DNA of 64,000 bases from positions 759 to 64,758 of the forward strand of contig SVBE01000007.1 of NCBI GenBank assembly GCA_015059065.1. The letters run 5' to 3'. The notes under the pieces were generated by a model. The model did not search any database. It worked only from the letters and a program-made list of their open reading frames with translations, and was not told the origin of the DNA. How positions within the stretch are numbered: position 1 is the stretch's first letter; every line of letters begins with the position of its first letter. The position numbers and the translations under genes are program-made. Source of the stretch: Erysipelotrichaceae bacterium (GTDB taxonomy: Bacteria; Bacillota_I; Bacilli_A; RFN20; CAG-826). Positions 1 through 20,758 of the stretch are shown one piece after another.

Positions 1-2
1 TG

Positions 3-914
3 TCCACTTTAGTGACTATCACTAATGAATATAAGGTTATGTATATCTTATGTTTCTTATTGTTATTACTAAACATATACATATCATTCATATATCTACT
101 CAACCATATACATTTTAAAAAGCAGTTTATGTGGCTATGTATAGCTGGTATAGCAATTGGATTCTTTATGCTTATATATTCATATATCAAAGAATGGGAG
201 ACATATAAGTTGTTCATTGAAAATATGTCCACGACTGTTAGAACATATAACCCAAGGAGTCTCACTAATAATCAGAATAGCTTCGCTGCTATTCTTTTAG
301 GGGCGGCGTTCTGTTCATACGGATTATATGCTATTACTAACAAACACATATGTTGGATAATTGGATTATTCTTTTGTATCAATACATTCTTCCCAATGTC
401 GAGGATATGTTTAACACTATCTATTATTCTTTCTTTAATGATATTTGCCTATAAGATGTTCGTGACTTATAAAGGAAATGAAAAGAGGAATAATATCGCT
501 ATCATATCAGTTGTTGGAACAATATTAACGTTACTCATCCTATACCTTTCAGTAAATGTCATCAGAAATTATATCGATAATGTTATCTTCACTAAAAATA
601 GTTCACTTAGCTCCAGACTACCTCTAATTGAACTCACTTTAAATATGACAGAGGGTGTTCATTCCATATTTGGTAATGGGCATGGATATTTCAACACTGC
701 GTTTTCTATTATGAATGGATCAGTTAAGATGCCACATAATCTATATGTTCAAACATACGGATCCCTTGGCATTGTTGGATTAGGCGCATTGATTGCGTTA
801 ATCATCTATGCTGTATATAGAATCGTTAGATTATATAAAGAAAATAAGGAAGCATCATTAATCTCCCTTATTGGTTTAGTTACTGTATTAATCTATTACA
901 TTGTCGAAGGATAA
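3..914 (+). CDS. O-antigen ligase/polymerase (Wzy_C-like) family polytopic membrane protein, probably 5'-truncated by the window edge
   Basis: The frame stays open from nt 3 (no stop before the GTG at 12), so the gene probably starts upstream of the window. It has multiple hydrophobic spans. A central NPRSLTNNQNSFAAILLGAAF loop is followed by further TM helices, as in O-antigen ligase/Wzy-type proteins. The call rests on motif recall only. Confidence 0.5.
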   Translation, partial: STLVTITNEYKVMYILCFLLLLLNIYISFIYLLNHIHFKKQFMWLCIAGIAIGFFMLIYSYIKEWETYKLFIENMSTTVRTYNPRSLTNNQNSFAAILLGAAFCSYGLYAITNKHICWIIGLFFCINTFFPMSRICLTLSIILSLMIFAYKMFVTYKGNEKRNNIAIISVVGTILTLLILYLSVNVIRNYIDNVIFTKNSSLSSRLPLIELTLNMTEGVHSIFGNGHGYFNTAFSIMNGSVKMPHNLYVQTYGSLGIVGLGALIALIIYAVYRIVRLYKENKEASLISLIGLVTVLIYYIVEG

Positions 915-919
915 TATAG

Positions 920-2032
920 CTATTTATGCTTATTGATCTCTTTTAACTCATTACGTGTTTTATCGTGTTGTTTAAAAAGTCCTCGGAACAATCTGAATGT
1001 CCAAGCGATAGGAATTAATATATGATGTTTGTACGCCCACGGATAAAGGATTTTATATTCTGTTACAGGCGGGAAGATACGAGAGAATATATATTTAAGC
1101 CTTCCTTTATTTTTAACACCTTTTTCAACCTTATTTCCTAATGTTCCGTACGTACTAGAAGAAGCAATATATAATAAGATGTCCTTCTCATTATCATCTA
1201 ACTCTTTATTAGAGAACAATTTAATAGATAAAGAATTAATCTCTTTAGAGAATTCTAATAATTCTAATTTCTCTAATTCTTTATCAATATAATCAATATT
1301 TAATTTATTGTTTTTTATGAATACATAGCAATCAATTAAATTTCTAAGCCCGCATCCGGCATTTTGATAATGCTTATGCAAATGTGCAATGTAATAAATG
1401 TAAAAATCTTCATTAGATAAATAATGTTCGTGGTCACTTTTTATTGGAGATCGTTCTAATAAACCTTCATAATAAGGAACCAACAATTCAAATTCTTTTA
1501 TGTGTTCAAACAAATAACGATGCATTTCAAAGTTATAAAAAGGGTCTTTCAAGTAAACATCATCTTTATCTACATCGTATGACTTAACTTTATACCCCCT
1601 ATCCGCAAAGAACCGTTTTACTAATTCTTTTTTACTGTCATCAAAAAGGATATCGTTGTCCGCGAATTCCCTTGTCGCGGGATCAGGATAATAATCTTTG
1701 ATGATGATGCCTTTTAAAGGCAGATAATCTATCTTGTTATCATTTAGGTATTTATATAATTCATTTCTCTCTTTATCAAAAAGCACTGTTTTACGGACAT
1801 TTGATAAATATGCTTCTTCTAATCTTGGTAGATATTCTTTATTGATCTTTATACCTGTATCTACTATAGCCTTATATAACAATGCTGATAAAGAATGGAA
1901 TTTAGAAAATTTGATGTAGAATGATAACTGTTTATCATCAATATCCATATCATCTAATTTCTCATTATTTAGATATGATGATAGTAGATGGATATAATCA
2001 TATAGATATTTGTTAAATACTTCTTTATCCAT
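920..2032 (-). CDS. Nucleotidyltransferase family protein (PF14907/NTP_transf_5-like); last gene of the PqqD/HprK-like cassette
   Basis: 370 aa. The segment LPLKGIIIKDYYPDPATREFADNDILFD fits the KG...Y.P...R...D.D.L signature of the 'uncharacterised nucleotidyltransferase' family that co-occurs with PqqD/HprK-like genes. It lies 5 nt downstream of the ABC gene. Confidence 0.65.
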   Translation of the reverse strand: MDKEVFNKYLYDYIHLLSSYLNNEKLDDMDIDDKQLSFYIKFSKFHSLSALLYKAIVDTGIKINKEYLPRLEEAYLSNVRKTVLFDKERNELYKYLNDNKIDYLPLKGIIIKDYYPDPATREFADNDILFDDSKKELVKRFFADRGYKVKSYDVDKDDVYLKDPFYNFEMHRYLFEHIKEFELLVPYYEGLLERSPIKSDHEHYLSNEDFYIYYIAHLHKHYQNAGCGLRNLIDCYVFIKNNKLNIDYIDKELEKLELLEFSKEINSLSIKLFSNKELDDNEKDILLYIASSSTYGTLGNKVEKGVKNKGRLKYIFSRIFPPVTEYKILYPWAYKHHILIPIAWTFRLFRGLFKQHDKTRNELKEINKHK

Positions 2033-2037
2033 AACAT

Positions 2038-3678
2038 CTATTCGCCTAAATCAATCACTTTATCAAAAAGTTTATCATCATATTTATGATGTGATATCAA
2101 TATGATAGTTCTATCACTTAAAGATAATATATTGTTCATCACTTTCTTTTCTGTTGATTCATCAAGAGATGCACTGCATTCGTCTAATAATAGGATTGGG
2201 GAAGAAGAATATATTGCTCTTGCAATCGCGATTCTTTCCATCTCTCCTAAAGATAATCCACTGCCTTTGACATTAAGGACTGTGTTTTCTTTATCATTTA
2301 ATTTATTGATGAAATCATATGATTCAGATATATGTAATGAACTGTTGAATAACTGTTCATCAACATCATTATCATATAATGTGATCACATCTTTAATTCT
2401 ACCTTCCATCAATAAATTATCTTGAGGGACATAGGCAAATAATCTTTCATATCTTTTAGATAATGGTTCACCGTTAATTAATATCTCTCCGTCATCAGGT
2501 TTAATTAAAGATAATAATAATTTAAATAAAGTAGTCTTTCCTCCCCCAGAATGACCTTTAATCAATATCTTGTCATTCTTATTAATTGTTAATGATAAAT
2601 CTTTAATCGCTTCAACTTTATGATCATATTTATCAAGATATGAATATGAGATATGCTTTATCTCAATACTATTAAATTCACCTCGATAATATTGATCAAT
2701 CTCACTCTTAGATAGATAAGATATATCATCATCTCTATCTATCATTATTCTCTCTCCAGATGCGATTAATGAATAATATCTTGGTATGATATTAGTGATA
2801 TTCCCTAATGGTCCTGTTAACTGAGTTAATAAAGCGATTAAGGCGGTTAATAGACCAATAGTCATATTGTTATCAAGGATCGCTCTTCCGCAGAAGATAA
2901 TGGCTAATATATAGAAAGAATAATAAACAACAATATATCCAATCGAGCAAGCGATAGAGAAGAGATTCCTCTTCATCCTCGCTTTCTTATAGTTAGATAA
3001 ATTATCTTCATTCTTTTTAGAAAAGATATCTTCTTTAACAAAGCTATGAATGATAGATAAGCCCTGTAAAGATTCAAAGAAGAAGATCTTGACCTTACCG
3101 TCCTCTTCTTGCATCTTTTTATGATATAGCTTAAGTCTCTTTCTAAGTAGATAAGTAAGAAGGATTACAAATACGATAGAAGGTAATAAAGATAAACCAA
3201 ATATTGGATATAGATAGATGATCGCCGCGATAGCAAGTACAAGCTGGACTACCATACGACATAAAGAAGGTAAGATGGAAAGAATGGATGATGATATCAC
3301 TGATACATCACTAGTGAGTCTATGTATCCATTCTTCATCATGAATCTTTTTAATCTCACTGTAGTCTTTGGATAATATGGTTTTATATAGATTATCTTTT
3401 AATTTGTTCTCGATATCGACATAACAATATTCATAATAGATGCGATAGAAGATTTGTAGTCCTACAAGTAATAAAGCAATAGAAGACATCGCTATCACAT
3501 AGATGATAAATAAATCATTATTCTTCTCTTCTAATGACGATATTAAAAAGCGAAGCATAAAAGAGAACGCTACTGTTAATGTCCCTAATATTATCTGAAT
3601 AATAGAAAGAAGAACAATCTTTCTTTTATTGCCCTTGATATTATTAGAGATGAAATGTAGCACTTCTTTATTCTTCAT
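2038..3678 (-). CDS. ABC transporter, fused permease + ATP-binding protein (exporter type, no C39 peptidase domain)
   Basis: 546 aa. An N-terminal ~6-TM domain is followed by Walker A GHSGGGKTT, signature LSLGEMERIAIARA and Walker B ILLLDECSASLD. It overlaps the upstream peptidase gene by 4 nt. Confidence 0.9.
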   Translation of the reverse strand: MKNKEVLHFISNNIKGNKRKIVLLSIIQIILGTLTVAFSFMLRFLISSLEEKNNDLFIIYVIAMSSIALLLVGLQIFYRIYYEYCYVDIENKLKDNLYKTILSKDYSEIKKIHDEEWIHRLTSDVSVISSSILSILPSLCRMVVQLVLAIAAIIYLYPIFGLSLLPSIVFVILLTYLLRKRLKLYHKKMQEEDGKVKIFFFESLQGLSIIHSFVKEDIFSKKNEDNLSNYKKARMKRNLFSIACSIGYIVVYYSFYILAIIFCGRAILDNNMTIGLLTALIALLTQLTGPLGNITNIIPRYYSLIASGERIMIDRDDDISYLSKSEIDQYYRGEFNSIEIKHISYSYLDKYDHKVEAIKDLSLTINKNDKILIKGHSGGGKTTLFKLLLSLIKPDDGEILINGEPLSKRYERLFAYVPQDNLLMEGRIKDVITLYDNDVDEQLFNSSLHISESYDFINKLNDKENTVLNVKGSGLSLGEMERIAIARAIYSSSPILLLDECSASLDESTEKKVMNNILSLSDRTIILISHHKYDDKLFDKVIDLGE

Positions 3679-4100
3679 TTAACTCTCCTCAGATGGAGTT
3701 TAGATAATAGATATTGTATCGGCATCCTGATATAGATGAAATTAGAGTAGAAGAACTTTCTCATCTTCTTGTCTTTATTTAGATTAATTACTCTTCCATC
3801 CTTCTTTCTAATTTCAATTAATTTACCTAATAATAAAGATCGATCAATCTTCTTATCAATAAAATAATTATAATCCCCTGCCGTAACGATAATATTATCT
3901 TTTATTTTAATAATGCGATGGAGGATATATTTATCATTATATTTATATAGAACGATATCACCTTTATGATATATATCAGTCTTTATGATATATAAGATAT
4001 CCTCTCTTTGACGAATGAGAGGATACATCGAAAACCCTACATTCGTGAAATATAGTTCTCCGTCTTTATCTAATACATCTTCAAATTTACTTAATGGCAT
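3675..4100 (-). CDS. S24/S26 (LexA/signal-peptidase-like) serine peptidase family protein
   Basis: 141 aa. GFSMYPLI matches the G-x-S-M-x-P nucleophile motif. It is followed by GDIVLY and ILHRIIKIK, which could supply the Lys general base. It overlaps both flanking genes. Confidence 0.6.
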   Translation of the reverse strand: MPLSKFEDVLDKDGELYFTNVGFSMYPLIRQREDILYIIKTDIYHKGDIVLYKYNDKYILHRIIKIKDNIIVTAGDYNYFIDKKIDRSLLLGKLIEIRKKDGRVINLNKDKKMRKFFYSNFIYIRMPIQYLLSKLHLRRVK

Positions 4101-4374
4101 TGATCTCTCTTAATTTATTCACAAAATCATTCACTGATTGATTGATAAGGTCTTTATCTTCATCTGGATAAGAATTATAGAAATGAGATAATAATTCATC
4201 CATCGTTAAATCATTATCATCAAGGAGATGAACAATCTCACTTCCCGTTTCATTAAGCTTAATAATTCCATGGAATGATTTGCTCTCTTCTTCTACTGGG
4301 ACTAGTATCTCCCCAGAAGAAGTCTTATGAATCAAAAAATTATTGTTCAGTCTCATATCTAATAATCCTTTCAT
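4087..4374 (-). CDS. PqqD family protein (RiPP-recognition-element-like peptide chaperone)
   Basis: 95 aa. The pattern ...GEILVPVEEESKSFHGIIKLNETGSEIVHLLDDNDLTMDELLSHFYNSYP...DLINQSVNDFVNKLREINAI matches the PqqD family layout (beta strands, L-N-x-T/S-G, winged helix). The start could instead be the Met at 4356. Confidence 0.7.
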   Translation of the reverse strand: MKGLLDMRLNNNFLIHKTSSGEILVPVEEESKSFHGIIKLNETGSEIVHLLDDNDLTMDELLSHFYNSYPDEDKDLINQSVNDFVNKLREINAIK

Positions 4375-5065
4375 ATGTCATCTTCGCGGCATCTATATCC
4401 ATATTGACATTAATATTATAGAAATTAATTTCTTCTAATATTATATCAATGATCTTAAGAGCCTTTTCTCTTTTATCTTTACCAGTTGGTAAATATATCT
4501 GAGATAAGAGATTAGTATATATATTGTCTTTATTATTTATCTTCTTATAACTATTCTCTATCCCCCGATTAAGGAATATCACAGTAGAAAGAGGGGCAGA
4601 TATATTATTCCCCCTTCTTTCTTTCCCGTTCCACGGGGAAGAATAAATAACGATATCATCCCCTACTTCAAGTAAAGGCTTATCATCATTGATATAAATA
4701 AATTTATCTCCTAATAATTCAGATAATAATCTAGCATGTGTTGTTTTACCTGTACCACTTCTTGCTGCGAGAAGAAAAGCATAACCATTCACCATAAAAG
4801 AAGAAGAATGGAACACGACGATATTATGATCAACAAGGATATCTGCAATCTTTCTATATAAGGCTGATATCTCTTCATTAACATAAACCTTACCATCACT
4901 TTGATAAGTAGTTTCAGCTTTTAAATCATCCTCAGTTAATGTAATTAGATAATCCGCTTTAACATCATCATCCACAAGATAATCTTTACAGTATCTTTTA
5001 GTCGTCATATTAAAAGCATTTATCTCAAATACATATCTTACTAGTTTTATTTTGAAATTAACCAT
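4340..5065 (-). CDS. HPr kinase C-terminal-like (HprK-related) P-loop protein; first gene of the cassette
   Basis: 241 aa. FHSSSFMVNGYAFLLAARSGTGKTTHARLL matches the H-(G/S)-S-x-h-x4-G-x-A-x-L-h-x-G-x-S-G-x-G-K-(S/T)-T block of HprK-related kinases found in RiPP and HPr-rel-A loci. There is no Shine-Dalgarno (SD) sequence upstream. Confidence 0.6.
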   Translation of the reverse strand: MVNFKIKLVRYVFEINAFNMTTKRYCKDYLVDDDVKADYLITLTEDDLKAETTYQSDGKVYVNEEISALYRKIADILVDHNIVVFHSSSFMVNGYAFLLAARSGTGKTTHARLLSELLGDKFIYINDDKPLLEVGDDIVIYSSPWNGKERRGNNISAPLSTVIFLNRGIENSYKKINNKDNIYTNLLSQIYLPTGKDKREKALKIIDIILEEINFYNINVNMDIDAAKMTYERIIRYETEQ

Positions 5066-5079
5066 AACTATATGGGTCT

Positions 5080-5108
5080 ATTATACATTTTTGTATAACT
5101 CTTGAGAA
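5080..5108 (-). promoter_or_regulatory. Candidate sigma-70-type promoter of the cassette (TTCTCA-17 nt-TATAAT)
   Basis: On the minus strand the -35 TTCTCA is at 5108-5103 and the -10 TATAAT at 5085-5080, with a 17-nt spacer. The -10 ends 14 nt before the ATG at 5065 and no SD intervenes. This implies a very short-leader or leaderless mRNA. Confidence 0.4.
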
Positions 5109-5245
5109 TAACAACCCAATATTCACCCGTGGGAACATATAGTTCGGACGAAGAGTCATCTACATCCTCAGAAGAACAGGCAAGTTCTGAGATGGAGGTT
5201 GATAGTGATGATGAAACAGGGTGGAGTCCAATAATTTGGTTCTAG
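5099..5245 (+). pseudogene. Remnant of the 3' end of a Ser/Glu-rich lipoprotein gene (paralogue of 9608-10186)
   Basis: The open frame after the TAA at 5096 reads ...YSPVGTYSSDEESSTSSEEQASSEMEVDSDDETGWSPIIWF*. This parallels the acidic S/E-rich tract and the ...DSDSGWGSIRWPD* C-terminus of 9608-10186. It occupies the equivalent position upstream of a small peptide gene. It has no signal peptide, lipobox or repeat domain. Confidence 0.35.
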
Positions 5246-5247
5246 CA

Positions 5248-5274
5248 GTACAAGAGTTTTAGGAGGAATTGTAC
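5248..5274 (+). promoter_or_regulatory. 6-bp stem (GTACAA/TTGTAC) enclosing the Shine-Dalgarno (SD) sequence, abutting the ATG of the 45-aa peptide gene
   Basis: 5248-5253 pairs with 5269-5274. The 15-nt loop contains AGGAGG. The same geometry, with a different sequence, occurs at 9588-9613. Confidence 0.4.
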
Positions 5275-5412
5275 ATGGGAGAAAAGAAAAAGAAGTTTAT
5301 TATACCAGAAGCTGAACTGGTTGATTTCACAAATGATGACATCATCACAACTAGTGTTGGTACAGACCAATTACAATGGGGTGATGGTGGTGCCAATACG
5401 GATGATTTCTAG
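5275..5412 (+). CDS. Unannotated 45-aa peptide (conserved K-rich F-x-x-P-E-x-E...NDDIIT-x-S N-terminus, acidic Trp/Gly C-terminus)
   Basis: The sequence is MGEKKKKFIIPEAELVDFTNDDIITTSVGTDQLQWGDGGANTDDF*. AGGAGG (5261-5266) lies 8 nt upstream of the ATG. The stop TAG overlaps the SD of the next gene, whose ATG follows 13 nt later. 19 of the 27 N-terminal residues are identical to the paralogue at 9441-9587. It is absent from the ORF track because it is under 60 aa. Confidence 0.75.
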   Translation: MGEKKKKFIIPEAELVDFTNDDIITTSVGTDQLQWGDGGANTDDF

Positions 5413-5425
5413 GAGGTAGTTTGAG

Positions 5426-7492
5426 ATGAAAAGAAAATTATTATTAGGAATACTTCCAGTTTTAATGAGTTTGTCCGCATGTGGAGGTGCAAACCAAAAA
5501 GCAAATGATTATTTCCAAGAAGACGCTTTGCTTCATGAAGAAATCTTTGGATCTGTTGAGAGCGCAATAGAATCAAAAGCATTTCGCAACCTTGATCCAA
5601 TTGGCCCAGCAGTTCCATTAATTGGTGTTCAACAACAAACATATACAGATTCAAGAGATTCTAAGCAATATCTTGCTGTTAGGTTTGTTGCTGTTGTCAA
5701 TCTTCCAGATTTATCAACAACCATTAAATGGGATAGAGGTATATACGAAGATGATGGAGACTGTCATAAAGCATTTGATAAGCCATTAGTAGCTACAACG
5801 GTATATGAATCTATTTATGATGGTAGCAGTTTAGTCAACATTTCAGCTTATGAAGGGTATACACATTTTGCAACATATACAGTCAGAAAAATACCAACAA
5901 ATAAGACAGGCTATTTTATCAAAGCATCATTAACTATTGGCAATGGCGAGCCTAGTAAGCAATATGCAACATCTGTTGATTTAACTAAGCAGGTTTCATT
6001 TAAGTTTAACACACCATATTCAGGATATTTCTTACAAGGAAAACGCGGTGAAGAACCAAACGCTACCACTTATGCTGACGACGGTGAAATCCCTGCTGGT
6101 AATCAAGCTCGTTTTACTACTTCTTTAGCAGCAAGTGACAACTTCTTTGTTGTTTATAATTATGAAGGTGCTACACCAGAAGAATCTAAATTTAAAATTC
6201 TTGGTTCTGAAATTTTAACTGGTAGTGAATACGCTAATATATTCTTTGAAGACACAGAAGGAACTAGTGCAAAGATTAATGTTAAAGCATCAAATGACTA
6301 TGTCTTATATTTAGATAATAGTAATATCTTACAATCAGATGAAATACATACAACAGCTATCGCTTTACAACATGGCGGTGTTGCTTGTTCTTCTGCTGAT
6401 TTATATCTCGGATTAGACGAAGATGCAACTTTTGAATTAACTGCAGTCACTACTCCAGCTGTGGTATCCGATAATGTAACTTGGGAATCTAGTGATACGA
6501 ACGTTGTTACTGTTTCAAACGGAACAGTTGCTCGTGTTGGTGCAGGAACAGCAACGGTCACAGCAACATCTAATGGCCAAACAGCAACATGTGCTTTCAC
6601 TGTACATAAAGTTTATGAAGGTGCAGTATATAGATCTGATGTTAAAGTTGGATCGTTTGATTTTGGCGAAGGTGCTGACAAAGGAGATTATACCGAATAT
6701 GCCTCATTGGTAAGCACCGTTAATACTGATGACATTATTATAATGTATAAAAATGGCGTGCAAATTTATCCAGGTGCATCTAATTCGGATGGAAACCTAG
6801 AGTATAATAATGAACATTTATTAAGAGTAAAAGATGGCGGTGCCAACTTAAGCTTATACCTCAAAGACTATGGGTCAGGTTATGATACATGGTTTGATAA
6901 TCCAGTATATACGATTAATAGATCTGCGAGCGGTGTCCGTACATTATGGTTCAAGTCAGCTACAAACGAATGGTGTGGAACCCCAGCCGTTTTTAAAGCT
7001 GGTGAATCATTCAGTGCTTATGATAAATGTGGCAACTTGTTAGAATATGGTCCAGACGAATGGTCGTTTGGAACAAAGGATTCTTACAAGTCCTACATTT
7101 CATATAATGATGGTGTTTATACCGCACTTAAAGATTTTGAAGTAGATGTTTATGTAAAGATTGACCAAAAAATCATATATTTCGGTACTCAGTATCCTTA
7201 TTATTTCTTATCAGGTTCATTTAATTCATGGGCTTACCAAGATAGCAATTATAAATTGGTCATAACCGATAATGCTGAATATAAGTTAGCTTTTAGCGTT
7301 TCAAAATCAGAAACATTCAAAGTTACTTCTGATAGTGATTCGCCAACTTGGTACCCTGATGGTAAAGATAATAACTACTCAATTGACTCAGAAGGCAATT
7401 ATATCATCTACTTTGACCCAAATAAAAGAACTGATCAAGGTTGGTATTATGATTATTTCTATGTGCAAAAAGTAGTTACAAGTAACTCATAA
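5426..7492 (+). CDS. Large surface lipoprotein with a Big_2 (bacterial Ig-like) domain; paralogue of 7582-9426
   Basis: The signal and lipobox are MKRKLLLGILPVLMSLSAC-GG. The N-terminal ~250 aa align with 7582-9426 (HEEIFG, PLIGVQ, RFVAVV, YEDDGD, GYFL.G, ARFTTSL..DNF.VVYN). A Big_2-like segment ATFELTAVTTPAVVSDNVTWESSDTNVVTVSNGTVARVGAGTATVTATSNGQTATCAFTV lies at about 6424-6610. The C-terminal GSFNSW-type module may be glycan-binding. Confidence 0.85.
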   Translation: MKRKLLLGILPVLMSLSACGGANQKANDYFQEDALLHEEIFGSVESAIESKAFRNLDPIGPAVPLIGVQQQTYTDSRDSKQYLAVRFVAVVNLPDLSTTIKWDRGIYEDDGDCHKAFDKPLVATTVYESIYDGSSLVNISAYEGYTHFATYTVRKIPTNKTGYFIKASLTIGNGEPSKQYATSVDLTKQVSFKFNTPYSGYFLQGKRGEEPNATTYADDGEIPAGNQARFTTSLAASDNFFVVYNYEGATPEESKFKILGSEILTGSEYANIFFEDTEGTSAKINVKASNDYVLYLDNSNILQSDEIHTTAIALQHGGVACSSADLYLGLDEDATFELTAVTTPAVVSDNVTWESSDTNVVTVSNGTVARVGAGTATVTATSNGQTATCAFTVHKVYEGAVYRSDVKVGSFDFGEGADKGDYTEYASLVSTVNTDDIIIMYKNGVQIYPGASNSDGNLEYNNEHLLRVKDGGANLSLYLKDYGSGYDTWFDNPVYTINRSASGVRTLWFKSATNEWCGTPAVFKAGESFSAYDKCGNLLEYGPDEWSFGTKDSYKSYISYNDGVYTALKDFEVDVYVKIDQKIIYFGTQYPYYFLSGSFNSWAYQDSNYKLVITDNAEYKLAFSVSKSETFKVTSDSDSPTWYPDGKDNNYSIDSEGNYIIYFDPNKRTDQGWYYDYFYVQKVVTSNS

Positions 7493-7511
7493 TATCGTAT
7501 TGAAAACAATT

Positions 7512-7545
7512 AAAAGGACCTCGCGTCGTTTGCGAAGTCCTTTTT
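7512..7545. terminator. Bidirectional rho-independent terminator between the convergent lipoprotein genes
   Basis: AAAAGGACCTCGC (7512-7524) pairs with GCGAAGTCCTTTT (7532-7544) with one C.A mismatch and a 7-nt loop. There is an A-run on one side and a T-run on the other. Confidence 0.7.
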
Positions 7546-7581
7546 ATAATTTGTTTTTAGAGATTAATATGTTTGTTTGAT

Positions 7582-9426
7582 TTATTCTGCAGGTGTTTCT
7601 GGGGCAACATATACATAATGACCTATTTTCTGTGCCCAATCAGCGCTTTCATCATACCAAACATAAAAACCATTTGTTGTGATATCGCTCAAACTAATAT
7701 TGCTCGTTTGAATAGAATATGAATTCTTGCTGCCGTTAAAAATAATATAGTCATATGTGTTAAAATCTACATTGTCTAATTTGTAAACGGCTTGATCAAA
7801 CTCATTATAGTGATCGACCGTCATAGCGATTCCTGGCCACTCTGCGTTCTTAACTTCAGGGTTTGCATCTGCTTTCCAGGCATACAAATTAACATTTGAC
7901 CAGCCATCTGAGTTAGTAAAGTAAACAGTAATTGAACTTGTAATAATAGGACCGCTTACATATAATTTATAACTTTTGTTCACATAGAATGTATGAGTCC
8001 CGCTTTCTAACGCGACATAAGATTTGCTACTACCACAATCTGGGAATTCGAGAATAACGTCATACCCTCTAATAAACGCAATTCTTTCGCCTTTTTCTAA
8101 AGGTATCTCATACTGGGCAATATTGTTGTCGGTATCTTCAACTTCAACAGAATAACTATCTAGATTTATTGATTTACCACCTTTGGTAGCGGATAAATCT
8201 GTTGGATAATCCAGCCACAACGCATAACTTACATAATCATATGTTTTAAACCATAACCCAAGATTTGATCCTCCGTTAACTATGTAACCCGATTCATTAA
8301 TGTTTGCTCCTTCATCTGGAGTAATAGAAGCAGTTGATATTACATTGCCATCATATGAGAAAATCAATTGAGTGTTGGTCTTAGGAGAAATGTTAACGTT
8401 AAAATTCTTTAGATTATTATTACCAAAACCCCAAAATGGTAAAGGAATCGTGTTAGATGAGCTATCATTAGCCGTATACGTTAATGTAAATCCTGTTTCG
8501 ACATCGATTTCACCACTGTTATTAAGATAAAAAACATAATCACGGGTTGTCCATGTTTTTATTTTCGTTGTAGACCCATCATCTTTAAAGAAATATGGAT
8601 TGGTGCTAAGACAGTTAGAATCATAAACGATAAACTTAGATTCGCCTAATGTATTAACATCGTGATTATACACAAGATAGAAATTATCTTCAGAAGTGAG
8701 CGATGTTGTAAAACGAGCTACTTTACCATCTGGTAAAGGGTTAGTGTCATAGTCATCATCTTCACCCAACACTTCTCCTGGCTCACCACCTATTTGTCCT
8801 TTAAGGAAATAACCAGTCTGTTCAGCAGGGAATAAAAACTGTTTTGATTGGTCAACCAATGTTGCCAACATGTCAGTTTTAACGCCATTAAGAGTTAAAT
8901 ACGCGTTTAAAAAATAATCTTTGTAAGTAGTTTTGGGGATATTAAGTATTGTATAAGCCAAGAAATGAGTATAGCCAGACGCCTCTGCTAAACCTTGTTC
9001 TTCGTCGAATGCAGACATATCGTACTCAACGTTGTTGTTGTAAACACTAGTATAAGCTTTTGTGCACTCGATTACTGCTTTTTCTTGTCCGTTTACCACA
9101 AACACATCACCGTCTTCATCATACATTCTTCTAGTCCAAGAAGCGGACGTAGATGTTAAATCAGTTAATTTAACAGCAGCAATAAACCTAAGAGAAATTT
9201 TACCATCTGCTTCTTTTGTTTGAACACCAATTGTCGGAACGCCTGGATACCCTGGATTGATTGCATTCTTACGAACCTTCTTTAATCCGTCTTGGATGTT
9301 GCCAAAAATTTCTTCATGGGCTAATGTGTCTTCGTGGAATAATCCGTTTTCGACTTGTGGTTGGGCTCCTGCGCAAGATCCTAAGAGCATTAAAGCAGGA
9401 ACCAAAGTTAATAATAATTTCTTCAT
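7582..9426 (-). CDS. Large surface lipoprotein, paralogue of 5426-7492, with a C-terminal CBM25/26-like module
   Basis: The signal and lipobox are MKKLLLTLVPALMLLGSC-AG. It shares its N-terminal domain with 5426-7492. The C-terminal ITVYFTNSDGWSNVNLYAWKADANPEVKNAEWPGIAMT...YIIFNG (about 7600-7935) matches the VYF..W..V..Y.W......WPG..M pattern of starch-binding CBM25/26 modules. Confidence 0.85.
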   Translation of the reverse strand: MKKLLLTLVPALMLLGSCAGAQPQVENGLFHEDTLAHEEIFGNIQDGLKKVRKNAINPGYPGVPTIGVQTKEADGKISLRFIAAVKLTDLTSTSASWTRRMYDEDGDVFVVNGQEKAVIECTKAYTSVYNNNVEYDMSAFDEEQGLAEASGYTHFLAYTILNIPKTTYKDYFLNAYLTLNGVKTDMLATLVDQSKQFLFPAEQTGYFLKGQIGGEPGEVLGEDDDYDTNPLPDGKVARFTTSLTSEDNFYLVYNHDVNTLGESKFIVYDSNCLSTNPYFFKDDGSTTKIKTWTTRDYVFYLNNSGEIDVETGFTLTYTANDSSSNTIPLPFWGFGNNNLKNFNVNISPKTNTQLIFSYDGNVISTASITPDEGANINESGYIVNGGSNLGLWFKTYDYVSYALWLDYPTDLSATKGGKSINLDSYSVEVEDTDNNIAQYEIPLEKGERIAFIRGYDVILEFPDCGSSKSYVALESGTHTFYVNKSYKLYVSGPIITSSITVYFTNSDGWSNVNLYAWKADANPEVKNAEWPGIAMTVDHYNEFDQAVYKLDNVDFNTYDYIIFNGSKNSYSIQTSNISLSDITTNGFYVWYDESADWAQKIGHYVYVAPETPAE

Positions 9427-9440
9427 ATATTTTCTCCTAC

Positions 9441-9587
9441 TTATTCTCCAAATGTCTCACCGTCTTCGTCAGTCCAACCGGCGTTACCTTGAGCTTCAGC
9501 TAAACCTGACCCCGTTATAATGTCATCGTTTTTAAAATCGAATATTTCTAATTCTGGTTTTAAAAACTTCTTTTTCTTTTCCTCCAT
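9441..9587 (-). CDS. Unannotated 48-aa peptide, paralogue of 5275-5412
   Basis: The sequence is MEEKKKKFLKPELEIFDFKNDDIITGSGLAEAQGNAGWTDEDGETFGE*. The ORF track lists it as a 64-aa ORF (to 9635), but the extra 16 codons overlap the upstream gene. GGAGG (9604-9600) precedes the ATG at 9587. The stop lies 14 nt before the lipoprotein ATG, and AGGAG sits between them. Confidence 0.75.
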   Translation of the reverse strand: MEEKKKKFLKPELEIFDFKNDDIITGSGLAEAQGNAGWTDEDGETFGE

Positions 9588-9613
9588 GATTAAGATTTTC
9601 CTCCATGTTAATC
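9588..9613 (-). promoter_or_regulatory. 6-bp stem (GATTAA/TTAATC) enclosing the SD, abutting the ATG of the 48-aa peptide gene
   Basis: In minus-strand sense the sequence is GATTAA-catggaggaaaatc-TTAATC-ATG, with a 14-nt loop containing GGAGG. The left arm includes the TAA stop of 9608-10186. It is the structural counterpart of 5248-5274. Confidence 0.4.
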
Positions 9614-10186
9614 TGGCCATCGGATTGAGCCCCATCCACTGTCGCTATCTTTCTCAACAGCGTAATATGTTGCTGTTACCGTTAGGTCTGAGGTTACCGA
9701 TGAACAATCCTTATCCCATCCTTTAAATGTATAAGAGACAGTATCAGTTCCCTCTCTTGTAGGTGTGTCGCCTACATATATTGCATTACCGCCTTCACCA
9801 ACATCCGTTTCATATAACGTAGTTCCATCATAGTTTTGGAAAGTTACATGATATGCTACTGGTGTTGACTCACTCGAATCCTCTGTGTAGGAACTATATG
9901 TTCGCTCGGGGTCTGAAGAACTGATTTCTTCGACTGAGGATTCCTCTTCCTCACTTGAAGAGATAGGTTCATCGGAAGAATATTCAATTTCACTAGAACT
10001 TGACGTTTCTATGCTGAATTCTTCCCCTTCATCAGAGCTTATAGTCTCTATCGATGATTGAGTGGACATATTCGTTGTCGTGTTACTGGTAGTAGATAAT
10101 TCACTAGAAGTAGTATTACCACTACCACAGGATGCTAAAGAAAATATTGCGAACAAAACAAAAGTAACGCTTAAAGCTTTTTTCAC
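9608..10186 (-). CDS. Ser/Thr/Glu-rich lipoprotein with one Listeria-Bacteroides (Flg_new / InlB B-repeat-like) domain
   Basis: The start is GTG with GGGGGAAA upstream. The lipobox is FSLASC-GSG. A ~90-aa S/T/E low-complexity linker follows. The C-terminal YHVTFQNYDGTTLYETDVGEGGNAIYVGDTPTREGTDTVSYTFKGWDKD...TVTATY is typical of the Flg_new repeat. Confidence 0.8.
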   Translation of the reverse strand: MKKALSVTFVLFAIFSLASCGSGNTTSSELSTTSNTTTNMSTQSSIETISSDEGEEFSIETSSSSEIEYSSDEPISSSEEEESSVEEISSSDPERTYSSYTEDSSESTPVAYHVTFQNYDGTTLYETDVGEGGNAIYVGDTPTREGTDTVSYTFKGWDKDCSSVTSDLTVTATYYAVEKDSDSGWGSIRWPD

Positions 10187-10315
10187 TTCTTTCCCCCAAT
10201 CCTGTTTCTTATCATGACACGAATATGCATGTGCGTTGCACTATTAATATATATTATATTATTACAAATCTAGGAAAAATAGGAAAAAATAATAAATGTA
10301 GTATAAATAATCAAT

Positions 10316-11734
10316 CTACTCTTTGTTTTTGCCAAGTAAATAAGCGTATGCTAATGCAGGTATACGATATAATTTAGTACCATTTCTATCAAATAGACCA
10401 AAATCATCAACTTCTTTGCTAACTACATATCCTGGCACATCTTTCATGCCATAGACGATAATACCGTCACTATCCTTGATATGAGCCTTGTGTCGATATT
10501 TAGCCTCAACATACTGGATATCTCTACCATTTTCCTGGATAATAATATCAATCTCTTGCCCTTTGTCATTCCTAATATAACCGACATTATATAATTCGTT
10601 ATCAACCGATAAGAAATAATCTCTCGTGTGTTTTAATGATACGGTTTCAATAGCCATACCAAGTTCATTATCATCGGTAACGATATCGTTAATGCGTGTT
10701 ACTGCACATCTAACACCATAATCAGATATGTATATTTTTCTTTTTGGTTTCAACGCTTTTTTGCCACTAGCGTCAAGCTGATCAGAGATATAGATGAGAT
10801 TAGCTTTTTCTAAAGCATCGATATAAAGGTTGCATGTGCTTCGATCAATACCAATGCTACTAGAAATAGTCTCAATCTTTATAATGTCGCCACTATGATA
10901 ACAGAAATAGGCGTAGAGATTAGCCAAAGCATCAACATCTCTAATAGGATGGGAACTAGGAATATCCTGTCGAATAGCTTTGCTCACCACTTGATCACGG
11001 ATAAGACGAGAAACATAATTATAGTCCTCGCTCAAAGCATATTCTGGAAATCCGCCTAAACGAAGATAGCGATAAAACTCACTATTAAGAGTGGCTATAT
11101 TGTTATAAATCATCGTTTGTTCATCAAGAGGCAAAGCATGAAGTTTGAATACATCAACATTAGGAAGATTTAAATGTTTGCCATTAATTTCACAAAATTC
11201 ATAGAAAGAAAAAGTCGGTATTTTGATCGTCAAAAATCTGGCAGCCCCAGATTCACCGCTATCTCTTTCAATTTCTACAGAAGAAGAGCCACTAATCATT
11301 ACTAAGCATTTCTTATTGAGGTCATATATCTCTTTGACATAACTTTTCCAAGTCTTATCTTTTTGAGCCTCATCAATGAATAGATAATAATCTTGATCTG
11401 GATAGACAAACTTTTGATACACCCTCACCACTTCTTTGATGGTTACATTATCGTTTGGAAAATCATCAAGGGTGTAAAACAATATTCTCGATGGCTTAAC
11501 TCCTTCGCTTAATAATTCATCAATTATTTGAAACATAATAGTTGATTTACCAACACGTCTAGGACCAGAAAGAACAGGGAAGCGTCTAATCTTATTAAAG
11601 AAAACATACTTCACTCTTTTATATTCATTACGCTTAAAAGATGGAGCTAGTTCTGTATCAACTTTGCCAGTAATCCACCACCTATTTTGCTCCTGAATAT
11701 TTCTTAATATTAATTGTTCTTCATTCATCACCAT
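10316..11734 (-). CDS. AAA ATPase, AAA_14 + DUF4143 type (orphan)
   Basis: 472 aa. It has Walker A GPRRVGKST and Walker B YLFIDEAQ. The C-terminal region has the DUF4143-like layout. It is monocistronic. Confidence 0.8.
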   Translation of the reverse strand: MVMNEEQLILRNIQEQNRWWITGKVDTELAPSFKRNEYKRVKYVFFNKIRRFPVLSGPRRVGKSTIMFQIIDELLSEGVKPSRILFYTLDDFPNDNVTIKEVVRVYQKFVYPDQDYYLFIDEAQKDKTWKSYVKEIYDLNKKCLVMISGSSSVEIERDSGESGAARFLTIKIPTFSFYEFCEINGKHLNLPNVDVFKLHALPLDEQTMIYNNIATLNSEFYRYLRLGGFPEYALSEDYNYVSRLIRDQVVSKAIRQDIPSSHPIRDVDALANLYAYFCYHSGDIIKIETISSSIGIDRSTCNLYIDALEKANLIYISDQLDASGKKALKPKRKIYISDYGVRCAVTRINDIVTDDNELGMAIETVSLKHTRDYFLSVDNELYNVGYIRNDKGQEIDIIIQENGRDIQYVEAKYRHKAHIKDSDGIIVYGMKDVPGYVVSKEVDDFGLFDRNGTKLYRIPALAYAYLLGKNKE

Positions 11735-11785
11735 TGGATCCCGCCTCTAGCACTTTAATTGTAATTTAATAGAGAAAGAAATCAA

Positions 11786-11847
11786 GGAAAATGTAGATTA
11801 TATTCAGCATTTTATATATGGAAAATGTAGATTACATTCCACATTTT
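11786..11847. repeat. Two 28-bp direct repeats (25/28 identical, 34-bp period), each with an internal AAAATGT...(A/G)CATTTT inverted repeat
   Basis: The repeats are GGAAAATGTAGATTATATTCAGCATTTT (11786-11813) and GGAAAATGTAGATTACATTCCACATTTT (11820-11847). They sit between the stop of 11848-12396 and the start of the DUF4143 ATPase gene. Confidence 0.6.
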
Positions 11848-12396
11848 CTAATAATGATATCTTTCTCTTTGCTTTTTGATGACATCTGTATGGATAATCG
11901 CAGATGACACTAATCCGACAAATACACCAGTGATGATCGCAGATAAACCAATCACAGGAAGATATAAAACAACATATGATGTTCCTAAATATATCATCGC
12001 TACTAATATTTGACCGATGACATGGGCTAATGCACCTAATACAGATACGCCTATAATAGAAAACTTCCTAATTAATAAATAAAAGATAATCATTACTAAT
12101 AAGGATAAGAACGCACCTGATAGAGACATTAAAAAGCCATATGACATAAATGTCCCTCTCACTAGTCCCACTACTACGACACGGATAAGATTAACGATAA
12201 TCGCATCTAATATCCCTAGTTCATATAGAGTCACTAGTATCACAATATTCGCGAGGCCTAATTTGATACCAGGAATGCCGATAGAAGGGATGAATGATTC
12301 TAATATGGCTATCACTACTGCTCCCGCGGTTAAAACGCCTAATAAGGCAATCTTATGAACGTTAAAAGTTGATGACTTCTTATTTTCTTCCATCAT
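11848..12396 (-). CDS. Gx transporter family membrane protein (heptaprenyl-diphosphate-synthase-component-I-like, PF07456)
   Basis: 182 aa with 5-6 TM helices. The position downstream of a NusG-II-domain gene and apbE is the usual arrangement for this family in Firmicutes. Confidence 0.65.
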   Translation of the reverse strand: MMEENKKSSTFNVHKIALLGVLTAGAVVIAILESFIPSIGIPGIKLGLANIVILVTLYELGILDAIIVNLIRVVVVGLVRGTFMSYGFLMSLSGAFLSLLVMIIFYLLIRKFSIIGVSVLGALAHVIGQILVAMIYLGTSYVVLYLPVIGLSAIITGVFVGLVSSAIIHTDVIKKQRERYHY

Positions 12397-14228: not shown

Positions 14229-14834
14229 TTATTTAATCACTCCCGTAAATAATCCTTGTAAGCCCATCATGGCAATCGCCATAATCGCGGCAGTAATAAG
14301 TGCAATTGGTAAACCTTTAAAGGCTTTAGGAGTATTCGCACTTTCTAGTCTCACTCTAATACAAGAGAAAGTGACGATGATAAGAAGGAAGCCAATTGAT
14401 GTCCCTAAGCCGTTTGCAATGGCTTGAAGGAAATCAAGTCCTTGATCTGTATTACCTTGAGCAACACCTAAAACCGCACAGTTAGTAGTGATAAGCGGTA
14501 AATAAATACCTAAAGACTTATATAAAGAAGGAGAATATTTCTTAATGAAAAGACCCACTAATTGGACTAAAGAAGCAATCACTAAGATATAAGCCACTGT
14601 ATCTAAGAATGGAATACCAGCAGGAACAAGAATGAAATGATATAAAGGCCAACAGATTAAAGTCGCTAAAAGAATAACAAAGACAACGGCAATACCCATG
14701 CCTAAAGAAGACTTCACCTTCTTAGAAACACCTAAGAATGGACAGATGCCGTAGAAACGCGAAAGGACAACGTTATCAATTAACATTGAAGAAACAATCG
14801 CAAGAAGGAAAGAAACAATGCCTTGCATCACCAT
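14229..14834 (-). CDS. rnfA: Rnf electron transport complex subunit A
   Basis: 201 aa and polytopic. It carries the NVVLSRFYGICPFLGVSKK and TNCAVLG motifs typical of RnfA/NqrE. Confidence 0.9.
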   Translation of the reverse strand: MVMQGIVSFLLAIVSSMLIDNVVLSRFYGICPFLGVSKKVKSSLGMGIAVVFVILLATLICWPLYHFILVPAGIPFLDTVAYILVIASLVQLVGLFIKKYSPSLYKSLGIYLPLITTNCAVLGVAQGNTDQGLDFLQAIANGLGTSIGFLLIIVTFSCIRVRLESANTPKAFKGLPIALITAAIMAIAMMGLQGLFTGVIK

Positions 14835-15574
14835 TATTTGTTACCTCCATTAGCCTCAGCAGCTTTTAATTTTGCCTCTTGAGCTTTTCTAATCTTTTCT
14901 TTTTTATCCATCGCGAATTTATATTCCGCTTTTCTATTCTTAATAAAGGCAATCACTGCAAGGATAAGAGCAAAGACGATAAAGGCCCCAACAGGAGTTT
15001 GGAATAAAGATATCTCATATCCTTTAGGAATGATTTGTAATTTAACAGCAGGGATAAAGGTAAAGATCGTCCCAAAAGAGAAACCACCTGTACCTAAAAA
15101 TTCTCTAAATATCGCCATTAACATGATCGCTAAGGTATAACCAACACCCATGCCTAAAGCATCGATGAAGGAATCAAAGACATTATTTTTAGATGCATAT
15201 GCTTCTGCTCTACCAAGAACGATACAGTTAACAACGATTAAAGAGATAAATACACCTAATGTGGAATATAGTTCTGGTAAAAAAGCATTGGTGAACATCT
15301 TCACCATTGTGACAAATGTGGCAATGATGACGATATAAGAAGGGGTTCTAATCTCTTCTGGTATTAATTTTCTTAATAAAGAGACTAAGACATTAGAACA
15401 GATTAAAACCACTGTAAATAATAAGCCCATACCAATCGCCGCTTCTAAGGTCTTGGTTGTCGCTAAAGCAGGACAAGTACCTAAGATAGAGACAAACAAA
15501 GGATTCTCAATGAATAAACCCTTGAGGAAATTAGCCTTAGTATAACCTTTTTCTCTTTTGATCTTATCAGTCAT
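14834..15574 (-). CDS. rnfE: Rnf electron transport complex subunit E
   Basis: 246 aa. It carries the ENPLFVSILGTCPALATT and VVNCIVLGRAEA motifs typical of RnfE/NqrD. Confidence 0.9.
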   Translation of the reverse strand: MTDKIKREKGYTKANFLKGLFIENPLFVSILGTCPALATTKTLEAAIGMGLLFTVVLICSNVLVSLLRKLIPEEIRTPSYIVIIATFVTMVKMFTNAFLPELYSTLGVFISLIVVNCIVLGRAEAYASKNNVFDSFIDALGMGVGYTLAIMLMAIFREFLGTGGFSFGTIFTFIPAVKLQIIPKGYEISLFQTPVGAFIVFALILAVIAFIKNRKAEYKFAMDKKEKIRKAQEAKLKAAEANGGNK

Positions 15575-16094
15575 ACATCGTCTCTCCTACTGCTTCTGTC
15601 GCTTCGTTAACCATGTCTCTCACAAGCTTCGCTCCGTATGTCGCTCCACAGCTCACATCGCTTAAATCTCTTTCCCCTGCATTAAGAGGAATGATATAGT
15701 TATCCACTAATGTGGTCGCATATGTCTGTTCATTAGTGACAATGGATAAACCTTTAAAGACTTGGCTACTACCTGTAAAGCCCACCATTAAAGATATTTT
15801 GCCGTACATATTACTACCACTGGTTCTAAAGACTTGGCCAACTAATTCGTCACCCTTTTTCACCTCATAATAATATTGGACATATTTATAAGTATTAGAT
15901 AAAGATTTCTCTTCACTGACAGTGATGTTATCACCATATATCGCAGTGATACCTTGATTGATCTTATTCTTCTCATTTTGGATGATTCTATCTTTAGTGA
16001 TCATATTGGTGAGACCGATGATACCACCTGCGACTGCAGCGATGCATCCTAAAGTGATCGCGGTGATCATATAATGTTTCTTAGTTTTATCCAT
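15567..16094 (-). CDS. rnfG: Rnf electron transport complex subunit G (FMN-binding)
   Basis: The start is moved to the ATG at 16094 (MDKTKK...) because GGAGG (16107-16103) lies 8 nt upstream. The track's TTG at 16109 falls inside that SD. The protein has an N-terminal TM, an FMN_bind-type domain and a C-terminal S-C-G-A-T-Y flavinylation-type motif. Confidence 0.85.
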   Translation of the reverse strand: MDKTKKHYMITAITLGCIAAVAGGIIGLTNMITKDRIIQNEKNKINQGITAIYGDNITVSEEKSLSNTYKYVQYYYEVKKGDELVGQVFRTSGSNMYGKISLMVGFTGSSQVFKGLSIVTNEQTYATTLVDNYIIPLNAGERDLSDVSCGATYGAKLVRDMVNEATEAVGETMYD

Positions 16095-19495: not shown

Positions 19496-19878
19496 ATGCC
19501 GTACCTCTTATTTAATTTCTTCCACTCATTCTCTCTCATTCGATGATGGGCAACTTCTTTTTTTGCTCTAACGTCAATCGCATCTACGATATTGGAAAAT
19601 AGTTCGTAGTCGTTTAGCATATCAGCTTTTTCTGCATCGTTAACAAGGTTTTGAATAACCTTTGGAAGCTCAAAATCTATCTCCACTTCATTATTTATGA
19701 AATGGTAGACTCTATGCTTATATATATCTTCAATAATCAAAGAAGTAATATAAGCATTAACGTTATCAACCTCATTAATCTTTTGCATAAGGAGTTTGTT
19801 GTCTTTCCTTATCCTTATTTTTAAAGTCTTATAATTATCTTTTATGAAGCTATTAATATATTTCTGCTGGTCAAACAT
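19492..19878 (-). CDS. Putative antitoxin/partner of the HipA-like kinase, with an N-terminal ribbon-helix-helix (Arc-like) pattern
   Basis: 128 aa. Residues 17-50, TLKIRIRKDNKLLMQKINEVDNVNAYITSLIIEDI, fit the strand-helix-helix pattern of Arc/CopG RHH repressors. It is translationally coupled (ATGA) to the kinase. The fold assignment is an inference only. Confidence 0.45.
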   Translation of the reverse strand: MFDQQKYINSFIKDNYKTLKIRIRKDNKLLMQKINEVDNVNAYITSLIIEDIYKHRVYHFINNEVEIDFELPKVIQNLVNDAEKADMLNDYELFSNIVDAIDVRAKKEVAHHRMRENEWKKLNKRYGI

Positions 19879-19952
19879 AAAGAGCCTTTCTAACCCAAGA
19901 ATAAGACATTTGGGGGCAAATGTAAATATCGCAAGAGTGCCTCCTGAATTAT

Positions 19953-20756: not shown

Positions 20757-20758
20757 TT

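Follow-up and report, generated by a model that had tools for sequence, protein, structure and literature searches.

The window analysed here, a stretch of 64,000 nucleotides (nt) from an uncultured Erysipelotrichaceae metagenome-assembled genome (MAG), carries at 920-5065 a cassette of five genes that probably (we put the odds at about three in four) serves to make linear phosphorylated ribosomal peptides. Two small precursor peptides encoded at 5275-5412 and 9441-9587 would be its substrates. The cassette resembles the lppK-B-S-D-N genes described by Popov et al. (Nat Commun, 20 May 2026; PMC13381572), who defined the 'linear polyphosphorylated peptides' (LPP) from about 100 clusters in Bacillales, with lppA-K-B-S-D-N of Paenibacillus alginolyticus DSM5050 as the cluster dissected by experiment.

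In LPP clusters the precursor LppA is encoded together with an HprK-like kinase (LppK), a discrete recognition element (RRE) for peptides that are made by the ribosome and modified after translation (RiPPs), named LppB, a SipW-like signal peptidase of archaeal type with the triad S29/H68/D93 (LppS), an MsbA-like exporter (LppD) and an NTP_transf_5 protein (LppN). LppK adds one to four phosphates to Ser3 of the LppA core in Bacillus subtilis. LppS, which requires LppB, cuts after Thr-1 and acts preferentially on phosphorylated precursor. In the heterologous host LppN showed no activity, and the group it adds, the final product and the role of LPP were reported as unknown (PMC13381572). The corresponding features of the window, with lengths in amino acids (aa), are as follows.

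4340-5065, minus strand: HprK/ScmC-like P-loop kinase, LppK-like, 241 aa (sequence motif, homologues in PF27840, AlphaFold2 [AF2] fold)
4087-4374, minus strand: PqqD-type RRE, discrete, with an LppB-like role, 95 aa (PF05402)
3675-4100, minus strand: cytoplasmic leader peptidase resembling archaeal/ER-type signal peptidase I, LppS-like, 141 aa (TIGR02228)
2038-3678, minus strand: MsbA-like ABC exporter, LppD-like, 546 aa (ABC_membrane and ABC_tran)
920-2032, minus strand: NTP_transf_5 nucleotidyltransferase-fold protein, LppN/PsmN-like, 370 aa (PF14907)
5275-5412, plus strand: precursor 1, 45 aa, MGEKKKKFIIPEAELVDFTNDDIITT/SVGTDQLQWGDGGANTDDF, the slash marking the predicted cut site (best match to the precursor profile)
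9441-9587, minus strand: precursor 2, 48 aa, MEEKKKKFLKPELEIFDFKNDDIITG/SGLAEAQGNAGWTDEDGETFGE, cut site predicted likewise (profile match, shared motif)

Gene content and recurrence of the cassette

The open reading frame (ORF) listing showed five minus-strand ORFs that overlap by 35, 14 and 4 nt and leave a single gap of 5 nt, which reproduces every overlap and the gap reported in the initial annotation. A Pfam scan took in all window ORFs of at least 110 aa. Among these, no match was found to Asn_synthase, expected of a lasso cyclase, to Transglut_core3, expected of a B2 protease, or to Radical_SAM; the slot after the RRE gene is filled by the serine peptidase. Neither the window nor the related loci L001-L052 had a real ORF with the SGGxDS PP-loop, and its single match, a 72-aa ORF (L046, 599-817), was read as chance. 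The scan agrees with the initial annotation that cyclase and B2 protease are missing from the 64 kb, and neither was found in the 48 related loci described below.

A candidate promoter had also been proposed at 5080-5108 on the minus strand. The site exists, with TTCTCA, a 17-nt spacer and TATAAT (10 of 12 matches) lying 14 nt upstream of the kinase ATG. It stays unverified, however, because such sites were not commoner in the region than in shuffled sequence (41 found against 53 expected).

The kinase has 869 relatives at 90% clustering, and the same five genes were found in the same order in an NCBI MAG and in metagenome neighbourhoods. A scan of one genome per species gave 48 related loci, all of them from MAGs. 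Their labels were Erysipelotrichaceae, 'Bacilli', Clostridia (Christensenellaceae, Lachnospiraceae, Oscillospiraceae) and Acholeplasma/Izemoplasmatales, with two Bacteroides/Bacteroidales and a few given just as 'bacterium'. Kinase, RRE and peptidase genes stood in a row in 35 of the 48 loci, and all five genes stood in order in 18, most of the remainder running off a contig edge. The five-gene loci belonged to Erysipelotrichaceae/Bacilli MAGs and to MAGs labelled Bacteroides/Bacteroidales or 'bacterium'. Clostridia loci held the trio and the exporter gene; Izemoplasmatales/Tenericutes loci held the trio and the nucleotidyltransferase gene, with the exporter gene upstream. The neighbourhood survey suggested in the initial annotation thus found the set recurring without a cyclase.

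Some otherwise collinear cassettes had Fic-domain, Phd-antitoxin-like or AAA_14/DUF4143 genes between peptidase and exporter (L005, 11421-11720; L007, 11488-12408; L011, 4815-6235; L012, L016 and L017, about 11465-12370). Four loci of Christensenellaceae MAGs (L032, L033, L034, L037) contained only the trio, placed among housekeeping genes (dnaE, pfk, polysaccharide deacetylase). No exporter, nucleotidyltransferase or recognisable precursor gene lay nearby in these four, and a convergent gene encoded an unannotated membrane-anchored protein of about 830 aa.

Precursor peptides and the proposed pathway

The two window peptides are paralogues, and both genes have good Shine-Dalgarno sites (AGGAGG 7 nt before the ATG of precursor 1). 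They had been picked as candidate precursors from their position, and they proved to be members of a conserved family that travels with the cassette. A profile seeded with the two window peptides and four neighbours from L001 and L002 found a family member beside the cassette in 24 of the 48 loci. The consensus reads M..KK[F/Y]xxPExE[I/V][I/V]xFxx[E/D]D[I/V]IxTS and is followed by a variable tail. Anchored on Pro, P-x6-F was present in 143 of 149 unique sequences. P and F were nearly invariant, D-I-I was conserved in 96% and the junction Ser in 87-90%. The tails (median 17 residues) were rich in Gly, Asp and Glu and net negative in 99%, with a median charge of -4. The junction Ser was the only conserved nucleophile of the cores and the sole Ser, Thr or Tyr in 31 of 141 tails. 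No conserved Asp/Glu column followed it in the precursor alignment at the lasso ring position 7-9; numbered from Ser27 (core residue 1), Asp occupies core positions 5 and 11 in precursor 1, and Glu occupies position 5 in precursor 2.

At 90% identity the precursor family comprised 131 clusters, none with a Pfam family; those with a name are called 'hypothetical'. Among 1.84 billion representatives searched (E ≤ 0.001), at least 6,035 clusters were found at 50% identity, a figure treated as a lower bound. The 150 best matches were all 36-83 aa long, and the full motif was present in 126 of 136 newly fetched sequences. In L001-L052 the motif was never seen fused to a large protein, and a literature search with peptide strings (EDIITTSG and similar) returned no paper.

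The cut most likely falls between I-x-[T/x] and S, parallel to the cut between F-E-T and A in LppA, with an uncertainty of 1-3 residues. This position is favoured because the Ile (96%) matches F-3 of LppA and the Thr (72%) matches T-1. F-3 of LppA occupies a hydrophobic cleft of LppS (PMC13381572). Such a cut would place the phosphorylated Ser at core position 1, not 3. A cut two residues after the invariant Phe, with this Phe aligned to LppA F-3, was tried and rejected; the resulting -1 residue would be Thr in only 12%.

The RRE matched PqqD (PF05402, E = 4.9e-10), which upholds the assignment of the 95-aa protein to the RRE fold, and TIGR04353 (PqqD_rel_X) scored E = 0.012 (16.6 bits against a cut-off of 35). 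BLAST gave no significant similarity between the window RRE and LppB. Comparison sequences for RRE and LppS-cluster proteins were taken from the supplement of PMC13381572. Proteins of the set called 'other RRE' (cluster 4 of the sequence similarity network, SSN; Desulfosporosinus, Dehalobacter, Anaerocolumna) matched at E = 1e-10 to 1e-13. A profile built from 39 RREs of the window-type family, compared by score and not by tree, gave 74-88 bits with these proteins, 21-36 bits with LppB-type and 20-28 bits with lasso/paeninodin B1 proteins. The SSN-cluster-4 RREs were also 36-42% identical to RREs of three Izemoplasmatales/Acholeplasmataceae loci, two of which carry kinase, RRE, peptidase, nucleotidyltransferase and precursor genes; the third stops at a contig edge.

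In the LppB structure, N33 fixes the leader where it kinks at Pro, and D70 forms a hydrogen bond with the Tyr of the leader (PMC13381572). The Asn equivalent to N33 was invariant in all 39 RRE homologues, and paeninodin B1 proteins have Gly there. The D70-equivalent was Asp in 8 of 23 precursor-bearing loci, 7 of which had Tyr leaders. It was Gly, Ser, Thr or Pro in the other 15, where 19 leaders had Phe and 6 had Tyr. The window RRE has Ser at this position, and both window leaders have Phe. The covariation (Fisher p = 0.013, no phylogenetic correction) is suggestive but no proof, because the loci are related. It suggests that RREs of the window-type family read [F/Y]xxP leaders, and the tracking of leader Phe or Tyr with loss or presence of the Asp could serve to predict RRE specificity.

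The kinase shows the motif FHSSS..SGTGKTT..NDD, and the P-loop, His and Asp-Asp motifs typical of HprK were invariant among its homologues. An HprK-C-like P-loop protein had been annotated initially. The fold was borne out, but not the family expected for it: the protein had no match in local Pfam, PF07475 included. Its homologues bear the precomputed family PF27840 'ScmC'. TIGR04249 (ScmC) matched weakly (E = 0.031, 13.6 bits against a cut-off of 125), and TIGR04352 (HPr-rel-A) did not match. The AF2 model (pLDDT 88) matched ATP-dependent phosphoenolpyruvate carboxykinase (PEPCK; E = 4e-6) and HprK/P (E = 1e-4). The PEPCK and HprK/P families share one fold. A PDB sequence search returned P-loop noise only (e.g. 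midasin), and a literature search for 'ScmC' returned unrelated acronyms only. The 'HprK kinase' group of the LPP study consists largely of TIGR04249 (ScmC) and TIGR04352 matches (PMC13381572). The protein is predicted to phosphorylate the invariant junction Ser of the precursors.

The peptidase was first annotated as an S24/S26-type Ser-Lys enzyme. A serine enzyme of signal-peptidase type it remains, but Peptidase_S24 stayed below threshold (21.4 bits against 23.3), and TIGR02228 (archaeal signal peptidase I) matched at E = 1.2e-9. The motifs GFSMYP, ILHRI and GDYNYFID mark a Ser-His-Asp enzyme of the ER/archaeal type and not a Ser-Lys enzyme. S24, H61, D76 and D82 were invariant across 16 homologues, and S24/H61/D82 line up with S29/H68/D93 of LppS. 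Identity was 28-35% to proteins of the LppS cluster (SSN cluster 1) and 28% to LppS itself. The peptidase profile lay about equally near both SSN clusters of the LPP study (85-107 bits against 55-80 bits). The AF2 model (pLDDT 75) matched LexA/UmuD and the signal peptidases SpsB and SipA. No membrane segment was detected; the maximum Kyte-Doolittle hydropathy over 19 residues was 0.54, and no stretch exceeded 1.6. The protein is 100% identical to 'hypothetical protein E7181_03275'.

The exporter has ABC_membrane at residues 24-291 and ABC_tran at 359-502 and no C39 peptidase domain in Pfam. Its best NCBIfam matches include TIGR02203 and TIGR02204, models also used in the LPP study. The nucleotidyltransferase matched NTP_transf_5 (PF14907) at E = 4.6e-39, and its gene was the last of the cassette in 18 of the 48 loci. 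Both proteins were placed as they had been initially, as a peptide-exporter-like ABC protein and a PF14907-like nucleotidyltransferase. No literature joining PF14907 and PqqD was found. The protein encoded at 920-2032 is predicted to decorate the phosphate. Beyond its gene lies a Wzy_C (O-antigen ligase/polymerase-like) gene on the plus strand (12-914), cut by the window start; the two genes are convergent, with stops 5 nt apart.

The following pathway is proposed. The PqqD-like RRE would bind the [F/Y]xxP motif of the leader, as homology and the RRE-leader covariation suggest. The HprK/ScmC-like kinase would phosphorylate Ser27 of both precursors, possibly several times; this residue is chosen because LppK acts on Ser3 of LppA and because its equivalent is the sole hydroxyl residue of the 31 cores mentioned above. 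The cytoplasmic Ser-His-Asp peptidase, with the leader presented by the RRE, would cut next to Ser27. The NTP_transf_5 protein would add a further group to the phosphate, as the NTP_transf_5 protein of pseudomycoidin adds a hexose, and the ABC transporter would export the acidic peptides, which are about 19-22 residues long. SVGTDQLQWGDGGANTDDF and SGLAEAQGNAGWTDEDGETFGE, each with one or more phosphates and a further group, are the products predicted. RRE-guided tailoring, leader removal by a serine protease and export of a linear peptide had all been foreseen in the initial annotation, and they now find a counterpart in the dissected lppAKBSDN cluster with the same genes in the same order. 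Its remark that no characterised system of this kind was known has been outdated since May 2026, and the architecture is not categorically new because it belongs to a RiPP class described since then.

Comparison with known systems and weighing of the readings

The window cassette shares with LPP clusters the K-B-S-D-N gene set in identical order, the SipW-like leader peptidase with Ser, His and Asp, the discrete RRE with its conserved Asn, the lack of a cyclase, and a precursor with a [Y/F]xxP leader and a conserved Ser at the leader/core junction. There are also differences. The window RRE sides with the unclassified 'other RRE' set and not with the LppB clade. The leader of the window family reads KK[F/Y]xxPExEIIxFxxEDIIxTS with P-x6-F, whereas the published one reads YxxPxVLxHQxIxFETxxS or Px9Fx[T/A]; its Tyr is often Phe, and the Asp of the RRE is lost in step. 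EDII[T/R/V/L] was found in none of the precursors listed in the tables of PMC13381572. Cores of the window family have a median of 17 aa and a charge of -4, whereas published cores are longer (18-47 aa) and neutral to basic (charges of -3 to +4). Loci of the window type have several precursor genes, each adjoining a surface-protein gene and sometimes far from the cassette, a pairing not described for published LPP. Their hosts are uncultured Erysipelotrichaceae/Bacilli, Clostridia and Acholeplasma/Izemoplasma-like MAGs, and the supplementary files of PMC13381572 contain no Erysipelotrichaceae or Clostridia entries. Judged by sequence, the locus belongs to a distinct and much larger sister lineage of LPP, with its own RRE clade, leader motif, acidic cores and surface-gene coupling. 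LPP-like machinery would thus be present in a separate, far larger lineage, that of uncultured anaerobes from gut and rumen. Its precursors form at least 6,035 clusters (50% identity) and are annotated as 'hypothetical' only. Searches by Px9Fx[T/A] or by lasso cyclases would miss this precursor family.

Several points weigh against assignment of the cassette to the LPP type. Leaders of the window family do not fit the published LPP motif, and no leader homology beyond [F/Y]xxP is claimed because reciprocal hidden Markov model searches were insignificant and hhalign gave a probability of 16%. The RRE lies outside the LppB clade by the profile scores given above. The kinase reaches TIGR04249 at E = 0.031 only, and it is likened to LppK by family models and fold. 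Phosphorylation, the cut site and the product of the nucleotidyltransferase are all things that we infer. Precursor 1 is oriented divergently from the cassette and precursor 2 lies at a distance of 4.4 kb, and co-expression is thus only presumed. For some precursor homologues no cassette lies within 10 kb.

The lasso clusters of the paeninodin/pseudomycoidin type (A, C, B1, B2 and D with K and N) share with the window an HprK-like kinase, which there adds one or more phosphates to a Ser in the linear precursor, an NTP_transf_5 protein, a B1-type RRE, an ABC exporter and a leader with [Y/W]xxP. One third of published LPP clusters lie beside such clusters (PMC13381572). The cassette might on these grounds be a decayed lasso cluster that lost its cyclase and B2 protease and kept the rest as relics. 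We regard this as excluded for practical purposes, because intact genes are conserved in dozens of species in the absence of a cyclase: each of the five ORFs is intact, they overlap, the triad of the peptidase is kept, and none of the species with the trio or the full set has a cyclase. The cores have no conserved Asp or Glu at positions 7-9, and the published lpp cluster works without a cyclase (PMC13381572). The window differs from the lasso clusters also in the serine peptidase predicted to remove the leader in place of the transglutaminase-like B2 protease, in the absence of the Asn-synthetase-like cyclase, in the predicted phospho-acceptor at the N-terminal end of the core (theirs is a C-terminal Ser) and in the RRE Asn, which is Gly in B1 proteins of paeninodin clusters. 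Pairs of an HprK-like P-loop protein with a PqqD-like protein are also known from the SynChlorMet (TIGR04249, ScmC) and HPr-rel-A (TIGR04352/TIGR04353) systems. The window has no radical-SAM/SPASM partners (ScmE, ScmF) of the former, with scores far under the cut-offs. In the latter case the curated cut-offs were not reached either, and the window type has no conserved link to exosortase or polysaccharide genes. The initial annotation had offered as its alternative an envelope or polysaccharide system of the HPr-rel-A type, in which the target would not be a peptide and the small ORFs would be incidental. The abutting Wzy_C gene and the weak TIGR04353 match of the RRE speak for it, as does the frequent position of published LPP clusters within capsule loci (PMC13381572). 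A Wzy_C neighbour was however found only in the window and L001 (among loci L001-L052), TIGR04353 stayed under its cut-off and TIGR04352 did not match; the conserved neighbour of the cassette is the precursor family, to which the covariation ties the RRE. We consider this alternative highly improbable.

The SipW protein of B. subtilis (tapA-sipW-tasA) belongs to the same TIGR02228-like subfamily as the window peptidase, with His replacing the catalytic Lys, and no neighbours of the precursor genes are as constant as large secreted proteins. The peptidase could accordingly be a dedicated signal peptidase of the adjoining surface proteins or lipoproteins, with the small peptides as by-products or regulators. 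SipW, however, is membrane-anchored and cleaves the signal peptides of exported proteins, whereas the window peptidase, for want of a membrane segment, has no access to exported substrates. The peptidase gene shares 14 nt with the RRE gene, and LppS cleaves a cytoplasmic precursor only when the RRE is present (PMC13381572); a signal peptidase role has very little to commend it. A RiPP pathway with other chemistry deserves somewhat more weight but is still unlikely. Here the ScmC-like protein would either lack Ser kinase activity or target a different residue, and the product would be modified in another way. In favour of this, the curated models resemble the kinase only distantly, RRE and leaders belong to lineages other than those of LPP, and the product of the nucleotidyltransferase is unknown even in LPP (PMC13381572). 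Against this stand the invariant P-loop, His and Asp-Asp motifs typical of HprK and the invariant junction Ser as the only conserved nucleophile. A linear phosphopeptide cassette of the LPP type remains the preferred reading.

Neighbouring surface-protein genes and further observations

Four further features adjoin the precursor genes.

5426-7492, plus strand: lipoprotein, 688 aa, Big_2 domain, lipobox LSAC; start 13 nt after the stop of precursor 1
7582-9426, minus strand: lipoprotein paralogous to the preceding one, 614 aa, CBM26 domain; immediately downstream of precursor 2
9608-10186, minus strand: small lipoprotein, Listeria-Bacteroides repeat, ending in GWGSIRWPD; directly upstream of precursor 2
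5102-5245, plus strand: 47-aa ORF ending in GWSPIIWF, without lipobox or repeat domain; C-terminus fits NWG[SP]I[IH]WF

The two larger lipoproteins are 39% identical over the N-terminal 300 aa or so and differ in their C-terminal parts (Big_2 against CBM26). The gene at 5426-7492 is translationally close-coupled to precursor 1 and is an associated gene outside the core machinery. The 47-aa ORF probably represents what is left, at the 3' end, of a second small lipoprotein gene, to judge from the resemblance of its end to the intact paralogue at 9608-10186. Both precursors thus stand in modules of the same layout: the remnant, precursor 1 and the 688-aa lipoprotein in one, and the small lipoprotein, precursor 2 and the 614-aa lipoprotein in the other. 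A conserved aromatic C-terminus, NWG[SP]I[IH]WF, sits directly before precursor genes.

The arrangement of precursor followed by lipoprotein was also found in L001, L002, L006 and L010. Across loci, about 28 of 37 precursor genes start 50 nt or less after the gene for a protein of about 120-2,200 aa, nearly all of these proteins having a signal peptide or lipobox. Seven look-ups started from peptide homologues. In six, a gene for a surface or secreted protein ends 13-66 nt upstream of the peptide, and in the seventh a large gene begins 11 nt downstream. The large proteins in these look-ups carry FIVAR/Big_2/Laminin_G, Flg_new or nuclease domains. A cassette was present within 10 kb in four of the seven and absent in three; the cassette-free contig of L054 and the cassette-bearing contig of L025 belong to the same MAG. 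Precursors trailing large surface or secreted genes by 13-66 nt were seen in L053 (7580-10153), L054 (9087-10144), L055 (6767-10141) and L057-L063, also where a cassette is missing within 10 kb. L057 has three precursors alternating with proteins of 872 aa, 718 aa (Endonuclease_1) and 1545 aa (Y_phosphatase). For large neighbouring proteins searched against Pfam and NCBIfam no family was found, and PDB gave as sole signal a weak match to a glucanase fragment and a 'surface protein'.

Of the leads on the role of the phosphopeptides, the coupling of precursor and surface-protein genes is the main one; it is testable and points towards the cell surface. It is conceivable, though we would not wager on it, that the acidic phosphopeptides are extracellular partners of the adjoining large surface proteins (e.g. 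anchoring, assembly or metal-binding cofactors) and not free antibiotics, each dyad forming a unit and one cassette serving all dyads. If so, this would be the first biological role for the LPP-like class, and Bacillota of gut and rumen would have a widespread system of surface decoration that comprises over 6,000 peptide clusters.

Elsewhere in the window, an Rfam search of 1-12000 gave no match, and PADLOC defence models found nothing beyond generic ABC ATPase similarity. A 4764-aa ORF on the minus strand (38269-52563), with MBG_2 and Listeria-Bacteroides repeat domains, presumably encodes a giant surface protein. At 18566-21301 (minus strand), a 128-aa ORF without Pfam match comes after a HipA_C-like kinase gene (18566-19495), and an AbiEii-type nucleotidyltransferase toxin gene (19953-20756) with a 180-aa ORF, also without Pfam match, adjoins this pair. 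These are probably toxin-antitoxin modules and lie beside an Rnf operon (14229-18521). A 590-aa ORF without Pfam match (28575-30347, plus strand) overlaps by about 80 nt the start of a 693-aa HTH_3 gene on the opposite strand.

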